A stretch of DNA of 64,000 nt from Thermoanaerobaculia bacterium (GTDB lineage: Bacteria; Acidobacteriota; Thermoanaerobaculia; Multivoradales; JAHZIX01). Each line of letters opens with the position of its first letter. Position 1 is the first letter of the stretch. Both the position numbers and the translations under genes were made by a program. Location of the stretch: contig JALXFE010000400.1 of the NCBI GenBank assembly GCA_027069135.1, forward strand, positions 28,774 to 92,773. Reading direction: 5' to 3'. The notes beneath the pieces were generated by a model. The model was given only the letters and a program-made list of their open reading frames with translations. It was not told where the DNA came from and did no database searches. Positions 21,109-57,727 of this stretch are shown one piece after another.

Positions 21109-22268
21109 GTGAGGAAAAAACCGACGCGACGGCGGCGACGCCGGGGACCGTACCGCCGGGGCAGGGCCTGAAGCGTATCGATCGCTTCCTGAAGTTGATG
21201 GCTGACCGAGGAGCCTCAGACCTCCACCTCTCGACCGGTCGAGCACCCATGCTGCGCCTTTCCGGTGGGGTGGAGGCCGTCCGCTACCGGGTGATCGACG
21301 AGCGCGACTTCGAAGGCCTGATGCAGCCCATCACCCCGCAGCGGCTGTGGAAACGATTCGTCGAAACGGGAGATGCCGACTACGCCTACGACCTCCCGGG
21401 AGTGGCCCGGTACCGAGTCAACGTGTTTCGCCAACACCGGGGGCCCAGTGCGGTCTTTCGCATCATTCCCAACGAATTGATCACCCTCGAAGAGCTCAAG
21501 ATGCCGCCGGCCGTGGGCAAGCTGGCGGACACTCCCTCGGGCCTCATCCTGGTCACCGGTCCCACCGGCTCCGGTAAGAGCACTACCTTGGCGGCGCTGC
21601 TCCATGAGATCAACCTCACGCGCCAACTCCACGTCATCACCATCGAAGACCCCATCGAGTTCGTCCACAAGAACCGCCAATGCCTGTTCAGCCAAAAAGA
21701 GATCGGTACCCACGCTCAAGGCTTCGCCGAGGCCCTGCGCATGGCCCTGCGAGAAGACCCGGACGTGATCCTGATCGGTGAGATGCGGGATCTAGAGACC
21801 ATCGAGATCGCCCTAAACGCCGCCGATACCGGCCTGCTCGTCCTCGGCACTCTGCACACGAATTCCGCGGCCAAGACCGTCGACCGCGTGGTCAGCGTCT
21901 TCCCCGCCAGCCGCACCGAGGAAGTACGAAATCTTCTCGCCAACGGCCTGTGCGCCATCGTCGCCCAGCAATTGCTCAACCGCATCGGCGGTGGCCGCAT
22001 CGCGGCCGTCGAGGTGCTTCTCAACAACCAGGCCTTGAGCTCCACGATTCGCGAAGGCAAGACCCACCAGATCTCGGACATCATCAGCGCCGGCAAGCGC
22101 CGCGGCATGGTGGCCATGGACGACAGCCTCATCCAATTGGTGGAAACCGAAGTCATCGAGCCCCAACGGGCTCTCGAAAAGGCCATCGACAAGGACGCGA
22201 TGCGCCGATGGCTCAAAAAGCACGGCTCCCAGGTTCCGGAAGACGTCGAGGACCCTGACGAAGCTTAG
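21066..22268 (+). CDS. pilT: Type IV pilus twitching-motility ATPase PilT
   Basis: ASDLHLSTG, Walker A GPTGSGKST, DPDVILIGEMRD, GTLHTNSAAKT and an AIRNLIRE-like STIREGKTHQI motif. Start ATG 21066, or GTG 21105 overlapping the upstream stop (GTGA). Confidence 0.9.
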   Translation: MRSFETSFRRSRLVSEEKTDATAATPGTVPPGQGLKRIDRFLKLMADRGASDLHLSTGRAPMLRLSGGVEAVRYRVIDERDFEGLMQPITPQRLWKRFVETGDADYAYDLPGVARYRVNVFRQHRGPSAVFRIIPNELITLEELKMPPAVGKLADTPSGLILVTGPTGSGKSTTLAALLHEINLTRQLHVITIEDPIEFVHKNRQCLFSQKEIGTHAQGFAEALRMALREDPDVILIGEMRDLETIEIALNAADTGLLVLGTLHTNSAAKTVDRVVSVFPASRTEEVRNLLANGLCAIVAQQLLNRIGGGRIAAVEVLLNNQALSSTIREGKTHQISDIISAGKRRGMVAMDDSLIQLVETEVIEPQRALEKAIDKDAMRRWLKKHGSQVPEDVEDPDEA

Positions 22269-27183: not shown

Positions 27184-27825
27184 ATGCCAAGACTTGTGTA
27201 CTCAGAACGAAAGCAGCGGGCCCAATGGGAGGAAGCCTCCGACCGCGAACTCATTTCCGGCCTCCAAGCGGGGGACGAAACCGCCCTGGACGAGCTCATT
27301 CGCCGCAAGACGAAACCTCTGATCCAGGTGGTCTACCGCATCCTCGGGGACTACGAAGAATCCCGCGACGTGGTCCAGATGACCTTCGTTCGGGTGTGGC
27401 AGAAACGCGATCAATTCGACCAACATTGGAGCCCGAACACCTGGATTTTTCGCATTGCGACCAATCTCGGGATCGACCAGCTGCGGGCTCGAAAGACCCG
27501 TGAGCGGACCCAGGAGCCCATGCGCAAACATCTGCGCCAGGTCGCCGAAGGGCAAGGCCAAAAAGCGCACTCCCGGATCCAGCAGAAGGAAGTCCTGAAG
27601 ATCTTCCATGAGCTGGCGGAGGATCTTTCGGAGCGGCAGCGCGCCGTTTTCGTGCTCCGGGAGATCGAGGGTTTTTCCTCCCGGCAAGTCGCCGAGACGG
27701 TCGGATGTCGGGAGTCCACCGTCCGCAACCATCTCTTCAACGCCCGCAAAGTCCTGCGCCGAGAAGTCCTACGCCGCTACCCCGAATACGCGGGTACCTA
27801 CACTTTGAAGGAGGCCTCCTCATGA
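27184..27825 (+). CDS. RNA polymerase sigma-70 factor, ECF subfamily
   Basis: Sigma region 2 (VYRILGDYEESRDVVQMTFVRVW) and region 4 (LSERQRAVFVLREIEGFSSRQVAETVGC...TVRNHL). Confidence 0.85.
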   Translation: MPRLVYSERKQRAQWEEASDRELISGLQAGDETALDELIRRKTKPLIQVVYRILGDYEESRDVVQMTFVRVWQKRDQFDQHWSPNTWIFRIATNLGIDQLRARKTRERTQEPMRKHLRQVAEGQGQKAHSRIQQKEVLKIFHELAEDLSERQRAVFVLREIEGFSSRQVAETVGCRESTVRNHLFNARKVLRREVLRRYPEYAGTYTLKEASS

Positions 27826-28475
27826 TCCACTGCCCGGATTGGAAGACCCTGCTTCAATACCGCTTCGACTCTTCCCTCGAAGAACCGGAGGATTGGGCCG
27901 AGGCTCTCGAGCACCTGAACGGCTGCGATTCCTGCCGCATCGAGGCTTACGAGGCCGACCCTTCTCTACTTTTCCTCGACCTCCCGGAGATCGAAGTGGA
28001 AGATCGCGAGATTCGGTACATGCAGCAGGCGGTAGCGACCCTGCGCCACGGCCTCGAGCTTGCCGACCACGATTCCTCCCAAGTGTCCGTCCGGGGCACC
28101 TCGCGGTTGACCTCAGGAATGCGGACTTGGGGGAAGATCGCCGCATCTCTCGCCGTGACCGGAAGTCTCATCGCGGGCGGCGTCGGTGCTTTCGACTCGG
28201 AGCCCGCCTCCGTTTTAGAAACGGGACAGATCGCGACAGGCACCGAGCTCGATACGGCGCCGGGAGTACCCGCCGCCGGGGCCCGTATCTATGGCCTGCC
28301 CCCTAGTTACCCAAACCGTTTTCCCGCGATGCCGTCAGCGCTGCCCGTCAACTGGCGCAACGCCCCGGTAGTGGAAGAAGTCGGCAGTCCGCTGGCGAGG
28401 ATCTACAACTACCCAAGGGCCCCGGAAGACAAGATCGCTCTCGTGATGATCATCGATCCGGCCTTGGATGTTTGA
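27822..28475 (+). CDS. Anti-sigma factor (zinc-finger, ChrR/RsrA-like N-terminus)
   Basis: ATGA overlap with the sigma gene. HLNGCDSCR zinc-binding-like motif, then a TM segment (IAASLAVTGSLIAGGV) and a periplasmic tail. Confidence 0.55.
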   Translation: MIHCPDWKTLLQYRFDSSLEEPEDWAEALEHLNGCDSCRIEAYEADPSLLFLDLPEIEVEDREIRYMQQAVATLRHGLELADHDSSQVSVRGTSRLTSGMRTWGKIAASLAVTGSLIAGGVGAFDSEPASVLETGQIATGTELDTAPGVPAAGARIYGLPPSYPNRFPAMPSALPVNWRNAPVVEEVGSPLARIYNYPRAPEDKIALVMIIDPALDV

Positions 28476-28555
28476 TTGCGAACGCCCCGTCGAGCCGCCG
28501 AGATTCCTGAACTGTTAGACCTGAAACATCTGAGGCGAACCTACGAGCTGTCTAC

Positions 28556-29344
28556 ATGACTGCCTTTCGACATTCTCCGAGGCTTCGGAGCCTCCGAGCC
28601 TGCCTACTTACCAGTCTTTGCCTTCTTACCGGTGACACTGGGGCGTGGGGGGCTCAGGCGGCGGCACGGCCCAGCGTGAAAGCGCCGGCCCTGGCGTTGT
28701 ACGCCTATAGCTTCGAGAACCAACCCGCCGTCGAGGCCCTCTCTCTCGTCTATCCGCTGCTTTCCGATCTCGGCACGGTGGAGCTCCGGCCCAAGGAGAA
28801 CACCCTCGTCATCCGCGACACCGTGATAACCATCAACCGAATCGTCGCGATGCTGAGCCGCTTTGACCATCCCCCGCGGGAAGTGCAGTTGGAAGTACGT
28901 ATCGTCAGTGCCCGGGCAGAGGCGTTTTCTCCGACAGCTCGATCGCGACTTCCCAAGGAACACGTGGACCGGCTCAAGGACATGCTGCCGTACCACAGCT
29001 ACGAGCAATTGGCCGGCACCAATCTGGAGGCCCGGGAAGGGGAACGGGTCAACTACCAATTGGGAGACCGCTTCTCCTTGGATTTTCGGTTGGGCACTCT
29101 GGTCGAAGGAGCGCGGGTTCGACTCCACGATTTTCAGATTTTCCGGGGGGGAACCCGAGATGGACGGGAAAAAAAGAGATTGATCGTCACGACCCTCTTC
29201 CTTCACCTGAGCCAGCCCGTCTACCTGGGCCTTGCTCCGAGCGAAGACAGCAAAGAGGCGCTCATGGTGGTGGTCACGGCCAAGGTTCCGCCGAAGAAGA
29301 CGGATTCCAAAACAAAGGTGGACCGCCGAGGAAACGGCTCATGA
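28556..29344 (+). CDS. Secreted/lipo-protein with secretin-N (NolW-like) domain
   Basis: Signal peptide. LVIRDTVITINRIVAMLSRFD resembles the secretin_N motif (vlv.g.......i..li..LD). Confidence 0.45.
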   Translation: MTAFRHSPRLRSLRACLLTSLCLLTGDTGAWGAQAAARPSVKAPALALYAYSFENQPAVEALSLVYPLLSDLGTVELRPKENTLVIRDTVITINRIVAMLSRFDHPPREVQLEVRIVSARAEAFSPTARSRLPKEHVDRLKDMLPYHSYEQLAGTNLEAREGERVNYQLGDRFSLDFRLGTLVEGARVRLHDFQIFRGGTRDGREKKRLIVTTLFLHLSQPVYLGLAPSEDSKEALMVVVTAKVPPKKTDSKTKVDRRGNGS

Positions 29345-29375
29345 AGCACCGATCGAGTAGACAGGGGGCGAAGAA

Positions 29376-30590
29376 ATGCAATTTGTTTGCCGCCTAGGTA
29401 CTCCGGACGGCCGCATCGTCGAGCAGCGCCACCAGGCCGCTGACGAGAGTGTTCTGCGCAGAGAGTTGGAGCAACGGGGATACCACGTCTTCGAGATGAG
29501 CCGCCCAGGGATCCTGAGCAAGCTCTCTTTCGGACACTTGAAGTCCGGCAACCGCAAGGTCGGAAACGAGGCCTTCTTGCTGTTCAACCAGGAGCTCGCT
29601 GCTTTGTTGCGGGCGGGACTCCCCCTCCTTCAAGCTCTCGATCTGATGTTGGAGCGGATGGAGAACCCGAGCTTGCGGCCGATTCTGGAAGATATTCGCG
29701 ATCGCCTGAAGGCCGGCGAGAACATGTCAGATTGCTTCGCTGCCTACGGCGAGACCTTCCCCCGTCTGTACTCTTCTTCTCTCAAAGCCGGGGAGCGCAG
29801 CGGGGATATGGAAGGAGTGATCCGCCGTTTCATCCGCTACCTGCAACTGGTGACCTCAGCCCGCAAGAAGGTTGTCTCTGCCCTCGTCTACCCGGCGGTG
29901 CTGGTGGGCCTATCCTTTGGAATGCTGGCGTTGATGGGCTTGTTCGTGGTGCCCAAGTTCTCTGCCTTCTACGAGGATATGAATGCCGAGCTCCCGGCAC
30001 TCACCCGCGCTACCCTGGGCGCTGCGACCTTCTTCAGGTCCAACTGGCTTCTCATTTTCGGAGCCCTGGTCATCGGCATCGCCGTATTTCGACAATGGAA
30101 TCGCACGGAGGCCGGGGGGATCGCCTTCGATCGGTTTCGTCTGAGCTTCCCCCTGATCGGAACTATCCTCCATCGCTTCGGTCTGGCGGAGTTCAGCCGT
30201 TCTCTGGCGACCCTTCTCGGTGGCGGTATACCCCTCGTATCCGCGATGGATATCGCGGTCGACGGCGTCGGCAACGCTTACATGCGCCAGCGTCTGCGAC
30301 CGGGAATCGACTTGGTGCGCCAGGGTGAGCCGTTCTATAGCGCCCTGGAAAAAAGCGAGATTTTTACCCATATCGCCGTCGACATGGTCAAGGTCGGCGA
30401 GGCGACGGGTGCTTTGGACGAGATGCTGACCAGTGTGGCAGATTTTCTGGATGCCCAGGTGGAGACCCGCTCGGAGCGCTTGCTGGCGCTGATCGAGCCG
30501 ATTCTTCTTGTGGTCATGGCCCTTATCATCGCTCTCCTCCTGATCTCCATCTACTTGCCCATGTTCAGCGTCATCACGCAGATTCAGTAA
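29376..30590 (+). CDS. pilC: Type IV pilus assembly platform protein PilC / GspF family
   Basis: 404 aa with two T2SSF repeats, 3 TM. Motifs LFNQELAALLRAGLPLLQAL and SRSLATLLGGGIPLVSAM. Confidence 0.9.
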   Translation: MQFVCRLGTPDGRIVEQRHQAADESVLRRELEQRGYHVFEMSRPGILSKLSFGHLKSGNRKVGNEAFLLFNQELAALLRAGLPLLQALDLMLERMENPSLRPILEDIRDRLKAGENMSDCFAAYGETFPRLYSSSLKAGERSGDMEGVIRRFIRYLQLVTSARKKVVSALVYPAVLVGLSFGMLALMGLFVVPKFSAFYEDMNAELPALTRATLGAATFFRSNWLLIFGALVIGIAVFRQWNRTEAGGIAFDRFRLSFPLIGTILHRFGLAEFSRSLATLLGGGIPLVSAMDIAVDGVGNAYMRQRLRPGIDLVRQGEPFYSALEKSEIFTHIAVDMVKVGEATGALDEMLTSVADFLDAQVETRSERLLALIEPILLVVMALIIALLLISIYLPMFSVITQIQ

Positions 30591-30633
30591 TGTTGAGATC
30601 CCAGGACGAAGCGACGCACAGGAAGTAAGCGAC

Positions 30634-32274
30634 ATGGCGACCACCTCCATCGAAGAGCCCCTCCTTCAGGCTCAACCGGACACCGAGGCCCAACTCCGGG
30701 CCGAGCGTGAGGCCGCGGTAGAGCTCGCCGAGCGTTATGGCATGGAATTCGTCGATGTCCATCAGATCCGGATCGATAACGAATTGCTCCGCCGTATCCC
30801 CTTCGACCTGATGCTGCGCTACGAATTCATTCCGGAAGAACAGCTGCAGGGGCGTATCTCCGTCGTCATGGCGGACCCTTCGAACGTGGTGAAACTGGAT
30901 GAGTTGGAGCTCCTCCTAGGCCAACCGGTGGAAGCCAAGGCCGGGGTGCCCACCGCTATCAAGGAGATCCTTCAGAAGTCCGAGAGCGCCCAGCGAGTCC
31001 TCGACGAGGCCAGCGAAGACTTCCGCATGCAGCTGCTGCAGGAAGACGACGACGGGGAGGAAGTTCTCTCCATCGATCGCATCAGCACCGATACGAGCCC
31101 CATCATCAAGCTCGTAGATTCGACCCTCTTTAACGCCATCCAGCGGCGCGCTAGCGACATCCACATCGAGACGCGGGACGCCGAGGTGATCATCAAATAC
31201 CGCATCGATGGCGTGCTCTACCAGGCCATGGAGCCCATCGACAAGCGGCATCACCAGACCATTATCAGCCGCATCAAGGTCATGGCAGAGTTGGATATCG
31301 CCGAGAAGCGAGTCCCCCAGGACGGTCGATTCAAGATGCGCATGGGGGGCCGCACCATCGACTTTCGGGTCTCCATCATGCCGTCGGTCCACGGGGAAGA
31401 TTCGGTGATCCGAATCCTCGACAAAGAATCCATGAACACGGAGTTCAAAAATCTCCGGTTGGACATCCTCGGCTTTGATGACGACACCCTCAAGAAGGTG
31501 CGGAAATTCATCCGGGAGCCGTACGGGATGGTGCTCGTGACCGGGCCTACGGGTTCCGGTAAGACCACGACCCTCTACGCCTGCCTTTCGGAGATCCAAT
31601 CCGCCGAGGACAAGATCATCACGATCGAAGACCCGGTGGAGTATCAACTCAACGGCATCACCCAGATCCCCGTCAATGAGAAGAAGGGGCTGACCTTCGC
31701 CCGGGGCCTGCGCTCCATCCTGCGTCACGACCCGGACAAGATCATGATCGGCGAGATCCGAGACGAGGAAACCGCACAGATCGCCATTCAGTCGGCCCTC
31801 ACCGGCCATCTGGTCTTCACGACCGTACACGCCAACAACGTGGTCGACGTTCTCGGAAGATTCCTCAACATGAACGTCGACCTGTACAACTTCGTGTCGG
31901 CCCTCAACTGCATCCTCGCCCAACGGCTCGTACGGCAGATCTGCCCCCACTGCCGACGGCCGGAGAAGGCCTCTCTTCAGCTTCTCGAGGAGAGCGGCCT
32001 CGACCCGGAGACCTACAGCGACCAGACTTTCTACGAGGGTGCCGGCTGTATCGAATGCAACGGCACGGGCTTTTTCGGCCGCCTCGCCGTCTCAGAATTG
32101 CTGGACCTGTCCGACCACATCCGCGAGCTGATCCTGGAACGACGCCCGGCTTCGGAAATCAAACGGGCGGCCCGAGAAGAAGGGATGCGCTTTCTTCGGG
32201 AAACGGCATTGGACAAGGTCTTCCAAGGAGTAACGACGCTTCGTGAGATCAATAAAGTTACCTTCGTGGATTGA
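30634..32274 (+). CDS. pilB: Type IV pilus assembly ATPase PilB / GspE family
   Basis: N1 domain, Walker A GPTGSGKTTTL, Walker B, and a tetracysteine CPHC...CIEC motif. Confidence 0.9.
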   Translation: MATTSIEEPLLQAQPDTEAQLRAEREAAVELAERYGMEFVDVHQIRIDNELLRRIPFDLMLRYEFIPEEQLQGRISVVMADPSNVVKLDELELLLGQPVEAKAGVPTAIKEILQKSESAQRVLDEASEDFRMQLLQEDDDGEEVLSIDRISTDTSPIIKLVDSTLFNAIQRRASDIHIETRDAEVIIKYRIDGVLYQAMEPIDKRHHQTIISRIKVMAELDIAEKRVPQDGRFKMRMGGRTIDFRVSIMPSVHGEDSVIRILDKESMNTEFKNLRLDILGFDDDTLKKVRKFIREPYGMVLVTGPTGSGKTTTLYACLSEIQSAEDKIITIEDPVEYQLNGITQIPVNEKKGLTFARGLRSILRHDPDKIMIGEIRDEETAQIAIQSALTGHLVFTTVHANNVVDVLGRFLNMNVDLYNFVSALNCILAQRLVRQICPHCRRPEKASLQLLEESGLDPETYSDQTFYEGAGCIECNGTGFFGRLAVSELLDLSDHIRELILERRPASEIKRAAREEGMRFLRETALDKVFQGVTTLREINKVTFVD

Positions 32275-33247
32275 GAGACTGGCCGGGCTGAACCCGAGGC
32301 CGGTCCCTGGATTCGTATTCTCCCTCGACGAGGGACGGCTGGCCTATGCTCGGTTCCAGCACAAGAACGGGACCTTGGAATTCTCCGACTATGCCTCCGT
32401 AGCATTACCGGAAAACGCCTTTCACGCCGGCCCCTTAGGCGGCGGAGTTCGCCAAGAACCTGCCCTGGCACAAGCCTTGGCGGATATCCTCGAGCGCATC
32501 GAAGAGCCCGTCGAAGAGGCCTGTCTCCTCCTGCCGGACGCCTGGCTTCGGCTCGCCTTCACGGAGGTCGGGGAATTGCCCAAAGATCCCCAGAAGCTCG
32601 ACGGGGCCCTTCGCTGGAAGCTCAAACGCCTGGTTCCCTTCAGGGTCGATGAGCTTCGCCTCGAGGGTGTCGAAGTACAGGCCCTTCCCGGCCAGGAAGA
32701 GCCGAAGAGAGCTCTTATCGGCTTCGCCTTGGATGCTCTCCTGGAACGCCTCGAAGGCATTTTCCAACAAGCCGGAGTGAAGATCGGCTACATCGGAAAC
32801 ATCAGTACTTCGATGCTACCGGCCTTGGCCGAGGGGACCGTTTCGGACGCCTTAATAGGCCTTGCCCTGGTCCGGAGCGATAGCTACACTCTCCTCTTCG
32901 CCCGAGGAGGGGAGCCGGTGCTCCACCGCCACAAGTCTTCGGATGGAGCCCTTCCCTACGAGGTTCGGGAAAAGCGGATCCAACGGGACCTAAAGCTGAC
33001 CCGCAACTTTCTAGATGAACGGATCCCAGGGGCACCCCTCGAGAGGGTCTTGGTGCTGGCGGCACCGGAGGTCGAAGATCCCTGGCCCCGCTGGCTCGAG
33101 GACAGCCTCCAAAGCCCAACAGAGAGGTTGAGAGAAGAACATATGGTCCCCCTTTCGGTCCAGCTGAACCGCCAGCAGTCGGAAGAGGCCGGCAGTTGGC
33201 TCGAGATCGCACCGCTACTGGGCGCGAGCTGCCTGGAGACCGCGTGA
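32243..33247 (+). CDS. pilM: Type IV pilus assembly protein PilM (actin-like)
   Basis: Position immediately after pilB and before pilNOPQ. ~330 aa cytoplasmic protein. GTG start 32243. Confidence 0.7.
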   Translation: MRSIKLPSWIERLAGLNPRPVPGFVFSLDEGRLAYARFQHKNGTLEFSDYASVALPENAFHAGPLGGGVRQEPALAQALADILERIEEPVEEACLLLPDAWLRLAFTEVGELPKDPQKLDGALRWKLKRLVPFRVDELRLEGVEVQALPGQEEPKRALIGFALDALLERLEGIFQQAGVKIGYIGNISTSMLPALAEGTVSDALIGLALVRSDSYTLLFARGGEPVLHRHKSSDGALPYEVREKRIQRDLKLTRNFLDERIPGAPLERVLVLAAPEVEDPWPRWLEDSLQSPTERLREEHMVPLSVQLNRQQSEEAGSWLEIAPLLGASCLETA

Positions 33248-34440
33248 AGACCCGACAGCTCAACCTCGCCCGACGACCTTTCGTCAACGCCCGGCCGGTA
33301 CGCCGGCTGACGGCTCTCCTGTGGCTCGTCGGCGCCGGTCTCTGCATTCTCAATGTAGTGCTGTTCTGGAATTATTTTTCCACCACCGACGACAGCCAAC
33401 AGGAACGACTTGCCCTGGAACAGCGCATCCAGCAACATAGCGCGCGCATCGCCGAGAACAAGGCCGTTCTGGCCAAGGTCGATCTGGTGCATCTCAACTC
33501 CCAGGTGGACTTCCTCAATGGCAAAATTGCGGAGCGAACCTTCCCCTGGAGTCAGCTCTTCGACCACCTGGCGGAAGTCCTCCCCGATAATGTCCGCCTG
33601 CAGAAACTCGCACCGACAACCGAAGACCGCGTGGGTCGAAGCGACCGGGTCGTCCTCCCGGGCGGACGGGTTCGCATGACCATCTCCGGAATCGCCAAAA
33701 CCGTCGAAGACGAATTGGAGTTCGTCGACCGGCTCTTCGCCCACCCATCCTTCGAGAGGCCCCGGTTGAAGGCTGACTCGATACAACAGGATCGATTTCT
33801 CCGATTCAATCTCGGAGTGACCTACTTCCCTGTCCGCCCGAGCTCGGTCACCTCAGGAGAGGCGTTGGAAGCCGACCGCAACCAAGATGAGGACGTGGAA
33901 TCTACGACGGCTACTCCAAGATCGCGGCTCGCGGCGACGGGCGTAGAAGCGCTCCCTCCCTCGTCTCCCCGCCGGACCGGCACACCACGACCGCCCGTTC
34001 CCGTAGCCCTGGCACAGGAAACACCCGCGGCCGAAGCGCCGTCCGTTGCTTCCGCGAGGCGACCTCTTCCGAGGGCTCGAGAGAAAAAGGCGGACGTGGC
34101 GCCCACGGAGCCGGACCGACCCTCGAGGCGAAATCGTCGGCGCGGCCGGTCCACCGAGACTGAAACCCCGGCCCCGACACCCACCGTGGCCGGAGGCATC
34201 GCGGGCTTGTTGCCCCAAAGAGCTCCGGGGGGCGAGGCCACTCGCTCCACCTCGACCAATCGGCGTCGGGGCGGGGCTCGTCGCTCTGGCGGTGGAAACC
34301 GTCGGCGCCGGAACCCACCGGGCATACCTCTCCCGGGAGGCGATTCCGACGGTGAGGATACCGGAGCTCGCGATCCTCGGGATCCCCGGCGCCCTTCGCC
34401 CCGTACCCCGCCCGCGTCTTCCACCTTGGAGATCCAATGA
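33244..34440 (+). CDS. pilN: Type IV pilus assembly protein PilN with long Arg/Pro/Thr-rich disordered C-terminal tail
   Basis: GTGA overlap with pilM. LNLARRPF then a TM segment (LLWLVGAGLCILNVVLFW) and a coiled-coil, typical of PilN. An extra ~220-aa low-complexity tail follows. Confidence 0.6.
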   Translation: MKTRQLNLARRPFVNARPVRRLTALLWLVGAGLCILNVVLFWNYFSTTDDSQQERLALEQRIQQHSARIAENKAVLAKVDLVHLNSQVDFLNGKIAERTFPWSQLFDHLAEVLPDNVRLQKLAPTTEDRVGRSDRVVLPGGRVRMTISGIAKTVEDELEFVDRLFAHPSFERPRLKADSIQQDRFLRFNLGVTYFPVRPSSVTSGEALEADRNQDEDVESTTATPRSRLAATGVEALPPSSPRRTGTPRPPVPVALAQETPAAEAPSVASARRPLPRAREKKADVAPTEPDRPSRRNRRRGRSTETETPAPTPTVAGGIAGLLPQRAPGGEATRSTSTNRRRGGARRSGGGNRRRRNPPGIPLPGGDSDGEDTGARDPRDPRRPSPRTPPASSTLEIQ

Positions 34441-35027
34441 AGCATCCCGGTGACGTGTGGCGCAAACACCTCTGGCTGTGGCTTCCGGCCCTGATCTTCT
34501 TCAGCTTGAATCTCCTCACGTGGAGCTACTACCACCTGGGAGACTTCGGCAATCAGGTGAGCCAGATGGAAAAACGGCTCGAGAGCTTGAAGGAGCAGGC
34601 GGCGAAGCTCAGCGTGGAAGAGAGTGAAGGCGCAACTCTGATCGAACGGGCGGCGACGAACCGGACCCGCATCGAGACCCTCTACGGGCAACGCCTGGCA
34701 ACCCAGAGCGAGCGACTCACCTCGGTGATCGCCGAAGTCCGAGACCTCGCCAGGAAAGCGGGCCTCGAGCCCTCCTCGGTCTCCTACCCCGAACAAACGC
34801 TCAAGAGCTTCGGCTTGGAACGCAAGGAATTCGTCTTCAGTGTCACCGGTACCTATTCCGACCTGCGCAAGCTGATCAACTCGCTGGACCTGACGGACAC
34901 CTTCATCTCCTTGGACGAAGTGGGCTTGAGCCAGGATGGTGGCAACAGCACTCGGCTGCAAATCAGCTTACGGCTGTCGACCCTTTTCGCCGCTGAGGAA
35001 GACTACGAGAACGGAGACGAAGCGTGA
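34437..35027 (+). CDS. pilO: Type IV pilus assembly protein PilO
   Basis: ATGA overlap. N-terminal TM (LWLWLPALIFFSLNLLTW), coiled-coil, periplasmic domain; position between pilN and pilP. Confidence 0.6.
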   Translation: MKHPGDVWRKHLWLWLPALIFFSLNLLTWSYYHLGDFGNQVSQMEKRLESLKEQAAKLSVEESEGATLIERAATNRTRIETLYGQRLATQSERLTSVIAEVRDLARKAGLEPSSVSYPEQTLKSFGLERKEFVFSVTGTYSDLRKLINSLDLTDTFISLDEVGLSQDGGNSTRLQISLRLSTLFAAEEDYENGDEA

Positions 35028-35608
35028 CCGAGAGCTCCCGAAAAAAGCTCCTCCTGGGAATGCTGGGAGCCCTTCTGGCGATCTTCGCCTGGAAACAGCT
35101 TCCCGAACTGAGCTCCCGCGAGAGCGAGGCCCAGATCGAGGCCGGACCCGCGAGCCGCCCGCGACGGGGCCGAAGAGGACGGCGTAGCCGGGAAGTGGTG
35201 CAACCCAAGGAAGTGCGCGAGCTCATGCTCAGCTCTCTGGATCCCGAACCTGGGTCCTACACCCTCGGTCGGAATCTTTGGGCTTTCTACACCCCTCCTG
35301 CACCTCCTCCACCGCCACCGCCGTTGGTCAGGCCCCCGGTCTTCGTCCCGCCCCCACACGTAGATAAGGAGCCCGTGGTCGATGAAACCCCGAGACCACC
35401 GACCATCCGATTCAAGTACTTGGGAAGCTTCGGGCCCAAGAATCGGAAGATCGCCGTACTGGCGGAAGAGGAAAACCTCGTCAACGCCTTGGAAGGGGAT
35501 GTGGTGATGAAAAACTTCCGAGTGGCCAAAATCGGCTTCGAGTCCGTATACATTGAGTACGTGGACTTTCCCGACGCCGAAGCCGCTCAGCTGAAGGTCG
35601 GAGGTTAA
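35024..35608 (+). CDS. pilP: PilP-like pilus assembly protein (proline-rich)
   Basis: GTGA overlap. TM/lipoprotein-like N-terminus, poly-Pro linker (PPAPPPPPPPLVRPPVFVPPP), C-terminal beta domain. Assignment is by position. Confidence 0.45.
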   Translation: MTESSRKKLLLGMLGALLAIFAWKQLPELSSRESEAQIEAGPASRPRRGRRGRRSREVVQPKEVRELMLSSLDPEPGSYTLGRNLWAFYTPPAPPPPPPPLVRPPVFVPPPHVDKEPVVDETPRPPTIRFKYLGSFGPKNRKIAVLAEEENLVNALEGDVVMKNFRVAKIGFESVYIEYVDFPDAEAAQLKVGG

Positions 35609-35624
35609 CTTGGAGACACTCTTG

Positions 35625-38117
35625 ATGATCCGTAGACCACTCGGGCTTTGCGCCCTCGTCGTATTGGTAGCCAGCCTCGCCGGCTGTTCGAGTTACCAGA
35701 GCTACCGCAAGGCCGAGATCGCAGCCCAACAAGAGGATTGGGATCGGGCCGTCCTTCACTACATGGAGGCCGTGGAGCGTGAGCCGGATAACCTCGGATA
35801 CCGCTCGGCCTTGCTGCGGACGAAAATCCGTGCCTCCCAGGAACACTTCAAGAAGGGTAAGCAATACCACGAAGCCGGGGTTCTTCAGCGAGCCCTGGTG
35901 GAATACCAGCAGGCGGTCCAGCTGGATCCCACGAATCAATACGCCCAAGCGGAGCTGGAGCGGGCTCGGGGAGAAGTCCGTGCCCTCGAGGACGAACGAA
36001 GTCCCGTCACCTCCCTCTCGGCGCTGAAGAAGAAAACCCGCGGAGCCCGTCCTCAACCTCCGACCCTCAACCCCAAATCGGACGATCCCATCGACTTGGA
36101 TTTTCCTCAGCCCACCTCGATCAAGGATATCTACCGGGCTTTGGGCAAGGCGTTTGGCATCAACGTTCTTTTCGATCCCAACCTCAAGGATCAGGAAATC
36201 TCCATCTCCCTCAAGGAGGTGACCTCCCAGGGCGCGCTGGAAGTCATCATGCGCGCAGCGGGACATTTCTACAAGGTTCAGGACGAGCACACGATCATCG
36301 TGGTGGCAGACACCCCTCAGAATCGCCGGAACTACGAAGATCTGGTGATCCAAACCTTCTTTCTCTCCAACGCCGATATCAAGCAGGTCATGACCATGCT
36401 TCGGAGTCTGGTGGACGCCAAGAAGATCGCCACCAACGAACAGCTCAACGCCATCATCCTTCGGGATACGGCGGATAAGGTCAAAGTGGCGGAGAAAATC
36501 ATCGAAGCCAACGACAAGGCCAAGGCTGAGGTCGTGGTCGACGTGGAGCTCCTGCAGGTGAACTCGTCGAAGATGCAGGAATTGGGCCTGAATCTCTCCA
36601 CCAATACGATCACCCAAAGTCTGGATCTGGGCGGCGAAAACGTGCCGTTGCGCATCTCGGATCTCGACGATCTGACGACCAACAATTGGACCCTGACGAT
36701 TCCCAATTTCATCTATAACTTCGTCAAGACCAATTCCCAGTCCCAGATCCTGGCCCGTCCCCAATTGCGCATCACAGAAGGCGAGAAGGCCCGGCTGCTG
36801 ATCGGTGACCGAGTCCCGATCCCCACGACCACCTTCAACACCTCCAACACCGTCGGAGGCAATATAGTGCCCCTGACGACCTTCCAATACACGGACGTCG
36901 GGATCAAGATCGAAATCGAGCCCCGGGTTCACCACAATCGGGAAATCACCCTCAAGGTCACCGTCGAAGTGAGCAATATTTCCGACTTCGTGATGGCGTC
37001 CGGAGGCCAGGAACAACCGGTCATCGGCACCAGGACCATCGAGTCGACGATCCGACTCAAGGATGGGGAGACCAACTTCCTGGCGGGCCTGATCCGGACC
37101 GAGGATTTAAGCTCCGAATCTGGAATTCCCGGGCTCTCCGATATCCCATTGCTGGGCAGGCTGTTCAGCAACAACAGCTCCAACGGCGGACGTACCGACG
37201 TGATCCTCACGATGACCCCGCACATCATCCGTACCCCCAACATCACGGAAGAAGATCTCTTGCCCATCTGGGTCGGCACCGAGTCGAAGATCACCTTTCG
37301 CGGCGGTAGCCCGCGGGTGGAATCGGAGGTGGACGGGCCCTTTGACGGCGACGACGACCGGGAGCGGGTCCAAGAGCTTCTACGCCAAAGATTGCAGCGG
37401 CTTCCCCGGGGCCTTCGGGAAAGAAATGGCAACCCGGAGACTGAGGAGGAGCCTCAAAACCCCGGCACGGACCTCACCCCGGGCCTGACTCCGAGTAGCT
37501 TCTTCCAGGAAGAAGAAAAGGATCCCGAAACCTCCAGCCTCGAGATCCCGGGGGCGCCGACGATCACTCTGGCCCAGCCGGACCCGGTGCTCTTCGCCTC
37601 CCATCGGGACGACGCCGAGAGTCGACCGGAGCCGGTTCGGCTGTGGATGGAAACAGCGGGGCGCTCGGCAGCGGCCGGAGATTCCTTCGAGGTCGACATC
37701 TTCGCGAACTCTTCGTCGTCCCTCTCGCATCTCCCGTTGGAGGTCAGCTTCGACCCGGAAGCGCTCGTCGTTGTAAGCGTAGAAAACGGCGGGTTCCTCG
37801 GAGCTCCAGGAGAGGCCGTAGTGCTTTCTGATCCCTCCGGCGTCGGACGCCTCACCATCGGCGCCAGCCGCCTCGGGAAACGCTCCGGGGTGAGCGGTGA
37901 AGGTGTCGTCGCCCGTATCCTATTCACGGCGGTGAGAGCCGGGGAGACGGATCTACAGTTGATCCAGGCCAAGGCCATGAACGCGGACCTCGAGCCCTTG
38001 GACGTCTCGCCGGAGGGCCTTAGGCTCGCCATCGGTCCGGGCTCCGGCTCGGGCAATCGTTCACGGGGACAAGGCGCCCGCAACCGGGAAGAACAACCTC
38101 CCATGAACCCGAGATAA
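35625..38117 (+). CDS. pilQ: Type IV pilus secretin PilQ (lipoprotein; N-terminal TPR-like region; C-terminal ~250-aa extension)
   Basis: Lipobox LAGC; GGAG RBS. Secretin_N repeats (NAIILRDTADKVKVAEKIIEANDK) and secretin core (ARPQLRITEGEKARLLIGDRVPI...DIPLLGRLF). Confidence 0.85.
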   Translation: MIRRPLGLCALVVLVASLAGCSSYQSYRKAEIAAQQEDWDRAVLHYMEAVEREPDNLGYRSALLRTKIRASQEHFKKGKQYHEAGVLQRALVEYQQAVQLDPTNQYAQAELERARGEVRALEDERSPVTSLSALKKKTRGARPQPPTLNPKSDDPIDLDFPQPTSIKDIYRALGKAFGINVLFDPNLKDQEISISLKEVTSQGALEVIMRAAGHFYKVQDEHTIIVVADTPQNRRNYEDLVIQTFFLSNADIKQVMTMLRSLVDAKKIATNEQLNAIILRDTADKVKVAEKIIEANDKAKAEVVVDVELLQVNSSKMQELGLNLSTNTITQSLDLGGENVPLRISDLDDLTTNNWTLTIPNFIYNFVKTNSQSQILARPQLRITEGEKARLLIGDRVPIPTTTFNTSNTVGGNIVPLTTFQYTDVGIKIEIEPRVHHNREITLKVTVEVSNISDFVMASGGQEQPVIGTRTIESTIRLKDGETNFLAGLIRTEDLSSESGIPGLSDIPLLGRLFSNNSSNGGRTDVILTMTPHIIRTPNITEEDLLPIWVGTESKITFRGGSPRVESEVDGPFDGDDDRERVQELLRQRLQRLPRGLRERNGNPETEEEPQNPGTDLTPGLTPSSFFQEEEKDPETSSLEIPGAPTITLAQPDPVLFASHRDDAESRPEPVRLWMETAGRSAAAGDSFEVDIFANSSSSLSHLPLEVSFDPEALVVVSVENGGFLGAPGEAVVLSDPSGVGRLTIGASRLGKRSGVSGEGVVARILFTAVRAGETDLQLIQAKAMNADLEPLDVSPEGLRLAIGPGSGSGNRSRGQGARNREEQPPMNPR

Positions 38118-38119
38118 CC

Positions 38120-38605
38120 ATGCTTCGACGCCCCACTGCACAACGCCCGCGGACCGACCGCGGAGTCACGTTGATCGAAATGGTCGTGGTGGCCGCGTTG
38201 ATGCTCATCCTTGCCAGCGTGAGCTACCCCGTCGCCAAGTATTCGGTCAAGCGCACCAAGGAAGCAGAGCTTCGCTTGGGACTCCGGGAAGTACGCAACG
38301 CCATCGATGAATTCAAACGCTACAGCGATGCAGGGCTGATTCCGGTAGACCTGGGGACCGACGGCTACCCCTCAGAATTGGAAGCCCTCCTCGAAGGTGT
38401 CGACCTCGTCGGCCAGATCGACAAAAAAGTGCGCTTCCTGCGCCGGGTACCCATCGATCCGATGGTGGGTAGCAACGAGGACTGGCTCATCCTCAGTACT
38501 CAAGACGAACCGGACGCATCCTTCTGGGGTGGTGAGAACGTTTTCGATATCCGTTCCAGCAGCCAAGGTGTCGGACTCAACGGCGTGCCATACGCTGAAT
38601 GGTAA
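38120..38605 (+). CDS. GspG-like major (pseudo)pilin with prepilin-type N-terminal methylation motif
   Basis: Class-III signal ...RGVTLIEMVVVAALMLILASV. GspG-like RRVPIDPMVGSNEDW (cf. PxDPWGN.Y). Confidence 0.75.
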   Translation: MLRRPTAQRPRTDRGVTLIEMVVVAALMLILASVSYPVAKYSVKRTKEAELRLGLREVRNAIDEFKRYSDAGLIPVDLGTDGYPSELEALLEGVDLVGQIDKKVRFLRRVPIDPMVGSNEDWLILSTQDEPDASFWGGENVFDIRSSSQGVGLNGVPYAEW

Positions 38606-39066
38606 AAGGGGGATCGATTTTGATTCGCAAAACTGGGACCTTGAGGCAGGTCAGGAAACGGCAGCACGGCTTCACACTCTTGGAGCTCATCATCGTCGTC
38701 GCGATGATCGGCATTCTGGCTACGATGGCCCTTCCAGCTCTCAAGGAGAGTCCCCGCCGCGCCAAAGAGGCGGTCCTCAAGACGAATCTTCGAACCATTC
38801 GGGACGTGATCAACCAGCACTTTGCCGACAAGGGCAATTACCCCTCGGGGCTGGAGGCGCTCGTAGAATCCGGCTACCTGCGCGACATTCCTCGGGATCC
38901 GTTCACCGGTGCCAACGATACCTGGGAACTGGAGTACGAGGAGTTCGACGAGGAATTCGAGCCGGCGGAAACCGATCTACCGGAGGACGGCCAACCCGGA
39001 ATCATCGATGTTTTCTCGGGCTCGGACCTCGAAAGTCTCGACGGCGAACCCTACAACGAGTGGTGA
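38599..39066 (+). CDS. Second GspG-like (pseudo)pilin, paralog of the previous gene
   Basis: HGFTLLELIIVVAMIGILATMALP prepilin motif; C-terminus ...GEPYNEW parallels ...GVPYAEW of the paralog. Alternative TTG start 38620 with RBS AAAGGGGGA. Confidence 0.75.
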   Translation: MVKGGSILIRKTGTLRQVRKRQHGFTLLELIIVVAMIGILATMALPALKESPRRAKEAVLKTNLRTIRDVINQHFADKGNYPSGLEALVESGYLRDIPRDPFTGANDTWELEYEEFDEEFEPAETDLPEDGQPGIIDVFSGSDLESLDGEPYNEW

Positions 39067-39070
39067 TCCG

Positions 39071-39931
39071 ATGATCCGGCGTACATCGCGGCTGCGGCGT
39101 CTCAGTGGCTACAGCATGGTCTTCCTGATGATGGCCGTCACCTTCATGACCATCCTGACGGCGCGGGTTCTTCCCGAATGGAGCGCTCTGAGCCAGCGAG
39201 AAAAGGAAGAAGAGCTGATCTTTCGTGGTCTGCAGTACGCGGAGGCGATCCGCGTCTTCCAGCGACGATTCGGCCGCTACCCGGTTCGTCTCGAGGAGCT
39301 CTACAAAGTCAAACCGCGCTGTATTCGGCAGTTGTATCCGGACCCCATGACCGAGGACGGGAGTTGGGGCCTGATCTTCGCCGGAGGGCCGGGAACCCGA
39401 GTTCAGGGTCAGGGCCGCCCCGGACAACCTGGGCAGCCTGGCCAACCCAACACCACCCGCCTGCCCCAGCCGAATTCAGGACACGGCTCCTCCGACGAAG
39501 ATGAAGGGACTCCGGGAGGCCAAAACCGGGCTCCCGGAAGCCCCGGGTTCGGAAAACCCCAGGCTGTAGGGCCCATCACCGGAGTGGTGAGCAAAGGCTC
39601 GAGCGAGAAGACCTTCAAGATCTTCCTGGATCAGGAATCCTACGATCAATGGGCCTTCACCGTCGATCTCGTATCCGGCGTGGCGTCGGCCCCGGACCGC
39701 CCACCTCAGGTACCCTCCGCCAAGACCCTCGGACGCCCGTTTCCGGAGGGCATCACTCCGCTGATCACCTTCACGCAGCCCAACCAACAGAATCCGCGCG
39801 GCCAGCGGGATGGAAACAACCGCAATGGCAATCGCTCACCAGACCGAAACCGCAGCCGAGGCGGATTCGGTGTCCCGCAGCCGAATCAACCGTCGACCGG
39901 CTCCGGCGGCTCGAATCGCCGTCGAAACTGA
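39071..39931 (+). CDS. Minor pseudopilin-like protein (prepilin-type N-terminal hydrophobic segment; G/Q/P-rich low-complexity C-terminal region)
   Basis: ATG 39071 immediately after the preceding stop. Motif GYSMVFLMMAVTFMTILTARV; GQP repeats. Confidence 0.6.
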   Translation: MIRRTSRLRRLSGYSMVFLMMAVTFMTILTARVLPEWSALSQREKEEELIFRGLQYAEAIRVFQRRFGRYPVRLEELYKVKPRCIRQLYPDPMTEDGSWGLIFAGGPGTRVQGQGRPGQPGQPGQPNTTRLPQPNSGHGSSDEDEGTPGGQNRAPGSPGFGKPQAVGPITGVVSKGSSEKTFKIFLDQESYDQWAFTVDLVSGVASAPDRPPQVPSAKTLGRPFPEGITPLITFTQPNQQNPRGQRDGNNRNGNRSPDRNRSRGGFGVPQPNQPSTGSGGSNRRRN

Positions 39932-40374
39932 TGAAAGTCCGCATCCGCCGACTTCCTCACGGAGCCGATCTCCCGCTGCCTCGTCCTGCCTCTTCGGGAA
40001 GCGCCGGCGCCGACCTGCGAGCCGCCGTTACGTCCCCCGTGGATCTCGGTCCCGGCGAAAGACGGCTGATCCCGACCGGAATCGCTCTCCAAATCCCTCC
40101 GGGCTGGGAGGGCCAGGTTCGACCCCGAAGCGGCCTCGCCCTACGCCACGGCATCACCCTCCCCAACTCTCCCGGCACCATCGACAGCGACTACCGGGGA
40201 GAAATCGGTGTCATTCTCCTCAACCTGGGACAGGAAACCTTTGTTATCGAACGTGGCCAACGCATCGCCCAACTGGTCCTCGCCCCCGTCGTTGACGCGA
40301 CCTGGGAAGAGGCCGAAGATCTCGACGACAGCGAGCGGGCCGAAGGCGGCTTCGGCTCGACAGGTACCCGATAG
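39931..40374 (+). CDS. dut: dUTP diphosphatase
   Basis: AGADLRA, RSGLALRHGITLPNSPGTIDSDYRGEIGVILLNLG, ERGQRIAQLV dUTPase motifs. TGATG overlap with the upstream gene. Confidence 0.85.
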   Translation: MKVRIRRLPHGADLPLPRPASSGSAGADLRAAVTSPVDLGPGERRLIPTGIALQIPPGWEGQVRPRSGLALRHGITLPNSPGTIDSDYRGEIGVILLNLGQETFVIERGQRIAQLVLAPVVDATWEEAEDLDDSERAEGGFGSTGTR

Positions 40375-57694: not shown

Positions 57695-57727
57695 ATGCTA
57701 CAAAAACATTAGGTGGCCGTCAATCTC

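Follow-up and report, generated by a model that had tools for sequence, protein, structure and literature searches.

A conserved type IV filament locus in Thermoanaerobaculia with affinity to the "unorthodox" type II secretion clusters of Ralstonia

In a 64,000-nt stretch of Thermoanaerobaculia DNA (the window, in which positions are counted from its first letter) ten genes at positions 29376-39931 of the forward strand encode a T2SSF-family platform protein, a T2SSE-family ATPase, four small proteins, an 830-aa secretin and three prepilin-like proteins, whose N termini resemble class III signals. Together the products are predicted to make up an envelope-spanning machine of the type IV filament superfamily that mixes features of type IV pili (T4P) with features of type II secretion systems (T2SS). 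The locus very probably belongs to the lineage of clusters known from Ralstonia as "unorthodox T2SS". It shows every lineage feature tested apart from the match of its PilM-like protein and fails the curated models of both the T2SS and the type IVa pilus (T4aP), and it is therefore regarded as a new cross-phylum member. The lineage has already been named in the literature and is unstudied. This placement is carried by gene content, by the orthology and folds of the components and by conservation among genomes.

A sequence-only reading of the same DNA had described a T4aP/T2SS hybrid at this place. Its observation is confirmed, because reading frames exist at the positions claimed, the domain matches hold and a six-frame motif scan of the 64 kb found no prepilin besides these three. 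The frames of the window also agree with the gene calls of the source scaffold (ENA ERZ23491342, JOHN19-1 scaffold_7, 138 kb). The mixed character of the locus is real, but it is not a peculiar local hybrid, as it represents an old lineage conserved in about 80 species and in Betaproteobacteria. Nor does the conserved unit begin at 29376, where the start of the locus had been placed: since the order from the sigma factor gene to dut is kept in relatives, the unit begins upstream, at 27184 (Table 1).

Relationship to the unorthodox clusters

Two clusters of Ralstonia were named "unorthodox T2SS" in genome papers, in which their function was not shown (PMC5080846, PMC6428702). They are described as having a core of seven genes, with four hypothetical ones in addition between gspE and gspD (PMC5080846), and within the Ralstonia solanacearum species complex unorthodox clusters are found on the megaplasmid and on the chromosome. 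When plasmid and chromid records were searched in translation with the ATPase as query, the best matches were R. solanacearum megaplasmids and a Paraburkholderia chromid, and the cluster ATPases of Ralstonia and Paraburkholderia are 50-52% identical to the query. Ralstonia, Paraburkholderia and Eleftheria share the gene order of the locus: in their clusters the genes for the platform protein and the ATPase are followed by four "hypothetical" ones, the secretin gene, two genes for GspG-like prepilins and one for a further small protein. By blastp, the ATPase is 50-51% and the secretin 30-31% identical to the counterparts in the proteobacterial clusters, TPR and cohesin ends of the secretin included; the platform protein is 31-33% identical to those of Ralstonia and Paraburkholderia. 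Prepilin 1 is 44-45% identical to the first post-secretin pilin of these two genera and prepilin 2 is 42% identical to its counterpart, while the third pilin shares 28% identity with a proteobacterial protein that likewise is without Glu5. Compared by hhalign with the Ralstonia and Paraburkholderia counterparts, the third pilin and the proteins of the N-, O- and P-like types reached probabilities of 60-98% (comparisons run end to end, the key ones repeated in local mode). One-to-one orthology was obtained by blastp and hhalign for all components except the PilM-like protein. The Ralstonia and Paraburkholderia secretins have the same series of TPR, STN, Secretin_N, Secretin and Cohesin domains, with 81 bits for the Ralstonia Cohesin match; the Eleftheria secretin is shorter and has no TPR or cohesin match. 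Homologs of prepilin 1 occur on 138 secondary replicons of Betaproteobacteria and of one alphaproteobacterial genus.

In a neighbour-joining tree of the ATPases (472 columns, 18 sequences, 100 bootstraps) the Thermoanaerobaculia proteins and those of the betaproteobacterial "unorthodox" clusters form one clade in 100/100 bootstraps. This clade lies apart from both GspE of E. coli and Yersinia (100%) and PilB of Geobacter, Myxococcus and Acinetobacter (98%). It grouped with PilB in 25/100 replicates and with GspE in 3/100, and has no resolved sister. The Thermoanaerobaculia locus nevertheless differs from the Ralstonia-type clusters in several respects. It is found in a different phylum, with identities of 28-51% only. 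Compared with Ralstonia, Paraburkholderia and Eleftheria it adds upstream a pair of genes for an extracytoplasmic function (ECF) sigma factor and a putative anti-sigma factor, as well as a gene for a protein with a secretin N domain. The extra canonical GspG gene that flanks the clusters of Ralstonia and Paraburkholderia is missing in Thermoanaerobaculia.

The comparison extends to the four "hypothetical" genes between gspE and gspD, which appear to be homologs of PilM, PilN, PilO and PilP. PilN and PilO match directly, for PilP the match is obtained with the Thermoanaerobaculia profile, and for PilM position is the sole basis. This identity of the four genes is not stated in the Ralstonia genome papers (PMC5080846, PMC6428702). 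The supplements to a survey of the superfamily, in the part available here, give validated T4P, T2SS and Tad systems for Ralstonia GMI1000 (PMC6668835).

The ATPase of the locus has counterparts of 77-88% identity in 80 genomes, each representing a species and all of them Thermoanaerobaculia or metagenome-assembled genomes of Acidobacteriota. Thermoanaerobaculia are a common soil and sediment class of Acidobacteriota, and in about 80 of their species the whole unit is syntenic wherever the contig suffices. The conserved order is kdtA (on the opposite strand), ECF sigma factor, anti-sigma factor, 262-aa protein, platform protein, ATPase, M-, N-, O- and P-like proteins, secretin, prepilin 1, prepilin 2, third prepilin-like protein and dut. 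It could be argued that the locus is a recent chimera, the outcome of a T4aP operon recombining with a T2SS operon in this genome, as its components match best to different canonical systems. The same gene order is however kept by Betaproteobacteria as well as by about 80 species-level genomes within a single class, the ATPases form a single, fully supported (100%) clade and base composition is uniform along the locus. A recent chimera is highly improbable for these reasons, and it was rejected on the ground of synteny. It is likewise highly improbable that the locus is what remains of a secretion or pilus system, decaying or already non-functional. In favour of such a remnant, several components score under curated family cut-offs, and a search of the window and of the 10 kb beyond each of its ends gave no prepilin peptidase gene. 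On the other hand the frames are intact in the window and in the open reading frames (ORFs) extracted from related loci, the motifs are kept (Glu5, LNLARRPF, GY(L/I)RxxPxDP and the lipobox), the ATPase identity stays at the level given above across 80 related loci, and the family is large in environmental data. The conservation led to rejection of the remnant as well.

Table 1. Genes of the conserved block in the window, with the features on which their assignment is based
Product	Position	Strand	Features
ECF-type sigma-70 factor	27184..27825	+	Sigma70_r2, Sigma70_r4_2 and Sigma70_ECF domains; first gene of the block
Putative anti-sigma factor	27822..28475	+	Zinc-binding HxxxCxxC motif (HLNGCDSC) seen in the translation
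Exported 262-aa protein	28556..29344	+	Secretin-type N (ring-building) domain in the N-terminal half
Inner-membrane platform protein (GspF/PilC family)	29376..30590	+	T2SSF, E 1e-55
Assembly ATPase (GspE/PilB family)	30634..32274	+	T2SSE, E 2e-131
Divergent PilM-like cytoplasmic protein	32243..33247	+	Candidate by ortholog profile only
PilN-like bitopic protein	33244..34440	+	Pfam PilN, 25.5 bits (cut-off 22.8)
PilO-like bitopic protein	34437..35027	+	Pfam PilO, 20.8 bits (slightly under the cut-off of 22)
PilP-like protein	35024..35608	+	N-terminal membrane anchor, no lipobox; proline-rich linker; conserved C-terminal beta domain
Outer-membrane liposecretin, 830 aa	35625..38117	+	Pfam Secretin (E 4e-41), Secretin_N, TPR, FecR_C-like, Cohesin
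Prepilin 1	38120..38605	+	N_methyl domain; G↓VTLIE here, consensus G↓FTLAE; GspG-like
Prepilin 2	38620..39066	+	G↓FTLLE; most GspG-like; candidate major subunit
Third prepilin-like protein	39071..39931	+	G↓YSMVF, no Glu5; candidate tip or initiator subunit
dUTPase gene dut	39931-40374	+	Starts at the last base of the stop codon of the third pilin gene

Components of the machine

The core had been read from the sequence as pilC-pilB-pilMNOPQ. Proteins of the GspF/PilC and GspE/PilB families and divergent M/N/O/P-like proteins were indeed found, but the secretin is GspD-like rather than PilQ and carries TPR and cohesin domains. The ATPase and the platform protein score about equally with Gsp and Pil models and lie under both curated cut-offs. 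For the ATPase, which has a single T2SSE_N/MshEN domain and a tetracysteine motif, these scores are 546 bits with the GspE model TIGR02533 (cut-off 630) and 529 bits with the PilB model TIGR02538 (cut-off 676); among PDB chains it scored 450 bits with Geobacter PilB, 416 with Myxococcus PilB, 376 with Thermus PilF and 375 with Vibrio GspE. The top-scoring model for the platform protein was that of GspF, TIGR02120 (310 bits, cut-off 424), and the PilC models gave 265 and 236 bits (cut-off 700).

Between ATPase and secretin lie what seem to be separate alignment proteins of the PilM, PilN, PilO and PilP type, in the order M-N-O-P-secretin and with matches that are all weak. The PilM-like protein has no Pfam or NCBIfam match, and Pfam applied to 59 of its orthologs found PilM_2 in 1/59 only (E 0.035). 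Its ortholog profile does match Thermus PilM (2ych) over residues 63-250 (E 8.5e-5), and its gene sits before that of the PilN-like protein, which is consistent with the assignment. With the first "hypothetical" of Ralstonia and Paraburkholderia hhalign found nothing, and orthology of the PilM-like protein with these genera is therefore positional only. The PilN-like protein was aligned by hhalign to E. coli HofN with a probability of 66-74% and to the second Ralstonia "hypothetical" with 96%. Its orthologs share an N-terminal peptide, LNLARRPF, at the position that matches the PilM-binding INLLP motif of PilN. It ends in an Arg/Pro/Gly-rich tail of about 200 residues (33850-34440); at 398-414 aa, compared with an ortholog median of 265, the protein is long for its family, and the tail is therefore specific to the lineage of this genome. 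For the PilO-like protein, the hhalign probability to the third Ralstonia/Paraburkholderia "hypothetical" was 60-90%. The PilP-like protein, assigned like PilM through a weak profile match, reached 62% (E 8e-5) with E. coli HofP and 96-98% with the fourth Ralstonia/Paraburkholderia "hypothetical". No profile of the alignment proteins matched E. coli GspL, GspM or GspC by hhalign, and no Pfam or NCBIfam match to these three was present in the proteins of the locus.

The secretin starts with a lipobox (LAGC). The TPR region comes next, then the N0/STN-like domain, a single Secretin_N domain and the secretin domain itself, and about 140 residues of linker separate the latter from a C-terminal cohesin-like domain (Cohesin 29 bits, cut-off 24). 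A lipobox is present in 33/49 secretin sequences, and each of the domains is conserved in 47-48/48 Thermoanaerobaculia orthologs. By score the secretin is nearer GspD than PilQ: it reaches 168 bits with the GspD model TIGR02517 (cut-off 351) against 111 bits with the PilQ model TIGR02515 (cut-off 284), and among PDB chains its secretin domain scores 77-83 bits with the GspD type and 38-45 bits with PilQ. Pfam detected no AMIN domain. As a TPR-bearing lipoprotein, the secretin may serve as its own pilotin, and the Hxc system of Pseudomonas is a precedent for a lipoprotein secretin. The end of the protein (37260-37991) consists of the acidic, disordered linker and then the cohesin-like domain, which is kept from Acidobacteriota to Ralstonia.

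Prepilins 1 and 2 are tandem paralogs (hhalign E 2e-45) with GspG as best structural match, as had been supposed from the sequence. Against E. coli GspG the hhalign probability is 96.5% for prepilin 1 and 99% for prepilin 2, the latter with 33% identity through a GY(L/I)(R/K)xxPxDP motif. Prepilin 1 has an 11-residue insert and a FLRR(V/I)PIDPM motif. Its cleavage motif was found in 46/50 sequences with Glu5 in 46/46 of those, and Glu5 is likewise present in every prepilin 2 ortholog in which the cleavage motif was found. The recorded product of prepilin 2 starts 7 codons after the start of a 155-aa ORF, for which an exact look-up gave no entry. Neither paralog has a cysteine here, and most orthologs are similar in this respect. 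The third protein had been singled out for its low complexity, and it does consist of a GspG-like core interrupted, then trailed, by variable G/Q/P-rich segments that are predicted to be disordered. When proteins in public data are clustered at 50% identity, its family alone makes up more than 1,200 clusters, a count taken from a listing of close relatives that measures family size, not taxonomic breadth. GspG or PulG are the names given to members of both pilin families in the JGI annotation, and Foldseek on a pilin gave weak matches with Thermus PilA4 ranked first. Judged by profile comparison all three pilins have the GspG fold, and none matches GspH, GspI, GspJ or GspK any better than GspG (hhalign). 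A pilin of the PilA type, in which the C-terminal region is disulphide-bonded, is missing at the locus, so that the claimed lack of a canonical PilA holds there, and no PilY1 or PilVWX/FimU-type set of minor pilins accompanies the three.

Secretion, display or a surface pilus

From homology with components of the T2SS and the T4aP we infer how the proteins may interact, how a pseudopilus may act as a piston and what its output may be. A hexameric GspE/PilB-type ATPase would act on the GspF/PilC platform protein in the inner membrane. The unfused PilM-like protein would be held by the N-terminal peptide of PilN, and PilN-PilO pairs together with the membrane-anchored PilP-like protein would connect the platform to the N0 domain of the secretin, whose N terminus, being that of a TPR lipoprotein, may take the place of a separate pilotin. 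The three pilin-like proteins would be cleaved by a prepilin peptidase encoded elsewhere. The two GspG-fold paralogs could then polymerise into a short periplasmic pseudopilus, capped or primed by the third, Glu5-less protein, and the pseudopilus would drive its substrate through the secretin, whether this is a folded cargo from the periplasm or a protein for display on the surface.

Both of the alternatives put forward in the sequence-only reading, a T4aP with GspG-like pilins and a T2SS-like machine built on PilMNOPQ parts, are live, and neither is settled by sequence alone. We lean slightly towards pseudopilus-driven secretion or surface display as the function. The pilins speak for this, being all three of the GspG fold and forming a small set with a GspK-like member that lacks Glu5, as do the GspD-like secretin and the absence of a retraction ATPase conserved with the locus. 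A non-canonical T2SS-like cluster of Shewanella provides a functional precedent (PMC6971210). That the Glu5-bearing pilins are mostly without cysteine was also counted in favour of T2SS-like action. With the canonical T2SS (Gsp/Pul/Eps/Xcp) the locus shares the GspE/F/D-family core, GspG-fold pilins with GYxxxxPxDP, a Glu5-less pilin as in GspK, and the lack of a linked retraction ATPase. The canonical system differs in having GspC, GspL, GspM, GspN and GspH/I/J/K, which the locus is without, and in its fused GspL where the locus has separate PilM and PilN. All curated Gsp equivalog models stay under their cut-offs at the locus, the ATPase falls outside the E. coli/Yersinia GspE clade and the secretin adds TPR and cohesin domains.

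A genuine T4aP-like pilus, with a GspG-fold major pilin forming surface fibres for adhesion, twitching or DNA uptake that are retracted by PilT/PilU encoded elsewhere, is possible, if rather unlikely. The locus shares with the T4aP of Pseudomonas, Myxococcus and Thermus (PilBCMNOPQ, PilA, PilT) the unfused M-N-O-P-secretin order and the PilB-like N-terminal domain of the ATPase, the top pairwise matches of the ATPase are to Geobacter and Myxococcus PilB, and the genome does have PilT/PilU genes, namely the two within the window. Type IV pilins of Thermus resemble pseudopilins yet form pili (PMC5131608), and T4aP are polyphyletic and diverse (PMC6668835). Against such a pilus, the secretin has no AMIN domain and scores far higher with GspD than with PilQ, the pilins are GspG-like without the disulphide-bonded C-terminal region of PilA-type pilins, and there are three of them only, with no minor pilins of the PilY1 or PilVWX/FimU type. 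The PilB and PilQ models stay under cut-off, and the ATPase lies outside the 98%-supported PilB clade, joining PilB references in just 25/100 bootstraps. The PilT genes, which had been noted at 18613-22268, are genuine, as they score 380 and 427 bits where the PilT/PilU family model requires 319, but they are not conserved neighbours of the locus: in none of the 80 relatives did the 10 kb on either side of the locus contain a PilT counterpart or another retraction ATPase. In this genome the pair is placed between biotin carboxylase/carrier genes and lipid A genes, and in the closest relative these genes adjoin and the pair is missing.

The first of the two PilT/PilU-family genes (18613-21108) encodes an 831-aa ATPase with an N-terminal HEAT-repeat extension of about 450 residues, and an ordinary 400-aa PilT is encoded directly downstream (21066-22268). 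A gene with a prepilin N-methylation domain (179-aa product, partly in the stretch examined) is found on the same scaffold about 8.6 kb upstream of window position 1, and the genome therefore has pilin genes beyond the locus.

Several observations weigh against secretion or display. The GspC, GspL, GspM and GspH/I/J/K set is absent and the alignment proteins are of the PilN/HofP type. The ATPase is nearer in pairwise score to deltaproteobacterial PilB than to Vibrio GspE, and its tree is a small neighbour-joining tree with few references. The PilM assignment depends on the one profile match to Thermus PilM, and the positional counterpart in Ralstonia is unmatched. A GspG-like fold would be compatible with a true pilus, the best Foldseek match being Thermus PilA4. 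Two bona fide PilT/PilU ATPases are encoded 8 kb upstream of the locus, the additional prepilin gene upstream of the window leaves room for a surface pilus, and no cargo gene was identified.

The GspD2 cluster of Shewanella vesiculosa HM13, a second Gsp-like cluster, is non-canonical and T2SS-like, and loads the cargo P49 onto vesicles (PMC6971210), the sole case of a demonstrated role among the systems compared here. It resembles the locus, by description and not by sequence, in being without GspCLM, GspHIJ and GspN and in having four "hypothetical" genes before the secretin, and differs in its order (G-E-F-pilins-K-four genes-D) and in the cargo gene that is adjacent there. The "T2SS" of Bacteroidetes (Cytophaga) stands apart from that of Proteobacteria, and an independent derivation from T4aP has been suggested (PMC6668835). 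It too can be set beside the locus by description only, as secretion-associated and outside the Proteobacterial T2SS.

It is tempting to go further and regard the lineage as an independent branch of the superfamily, third beside T2SS and T4aP, that forms a dedicated secretion or display machine and is coupled to an ECF sigma factor in Thermoanaerobaculia. This reading is speculative and we hold it tentatively. The branch may represent a preserved intermediate, with unfused PilM and PilN, a PilP-like connector, three GspG-fold pilins and a self-piloting TPR-secretin-cohesin protein, and the ECF pair may couple its expression to envelope signalling by way of either the secretin's STN-like N0 domain or the additional protein with a secretin N domain. 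The superfamily survey reports many unclassified "generic" systems besides the polyphyletic T4aP (PMC6668835), and a specialist would for that reason be interested in the locus rather than startled by it. The lineage bears on the origin of the T2SS from T4aP-like ancestors, and no member of it, those of the plant pathogen Ralstonia included, has a known function. The occurrence of a TPR-cohesin liposecretin in Acidobacteriota, Ralstonia and Paraburkholderia provides hypotheses open to test in a tractable organism.

The gene block and its surroundings

The ten genes are part of a block of 14 co-directional genes on the forward strand (27184-40374), from the sigma factor gene through dut, with spacings of -32 to +80 bp. 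The sigma factor scores 94 bits with TIGR02937 (sigma70-ECF, cut-off 42.9), its start codon was picked by eye (MPRLVY), and its gene is syntenic in almost all related loci. The next gene, with an overlap of 4 bases between its ATG and the stop codon of the sigma factor gene, is syntenic in most related loci. Its product has no family match in Pfam or NCBIfam and, from its motif and position, may act as an anti-sigma factor. The pair probably controls expression of the block. It is reminiscent of those cell-surface signalling pairs that make contact with STN domains, and an STN/FecR_C-like N0 domain is present in the secretin.

The 262-aa protein is encoded directly upstream of the platform gene in 68 related loci. 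At E values between 3e-8 and 5e-6, the profile of its orthologs matched N domains in M. xanthus PilQ, in GspD and in HofQ, the protein itself has weak NCBIfam PilQ and GspD matches over residues 36-122, and no counterpart was found in the proteobacterial clusters examined. At the other end of the block, dut is next in almost every relative and is probably co-transcribed with the secretion/pilus genes. A scan for promoters and terminators gave counts inside the range expected from shuffled sequence.

In the whole window (1-64000) there was no tRNA gene and no Rfam family at threshold. Two large adjacent ORFs at 11848-16514 (772 and 809 aa) have a gene-like codon bias and no Pfam or NCBIfam match. 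At 57713-60061, surrounded by housekeeping genes, a DNA polymerase of family B with exonuclease and polymerase domains is encoded.

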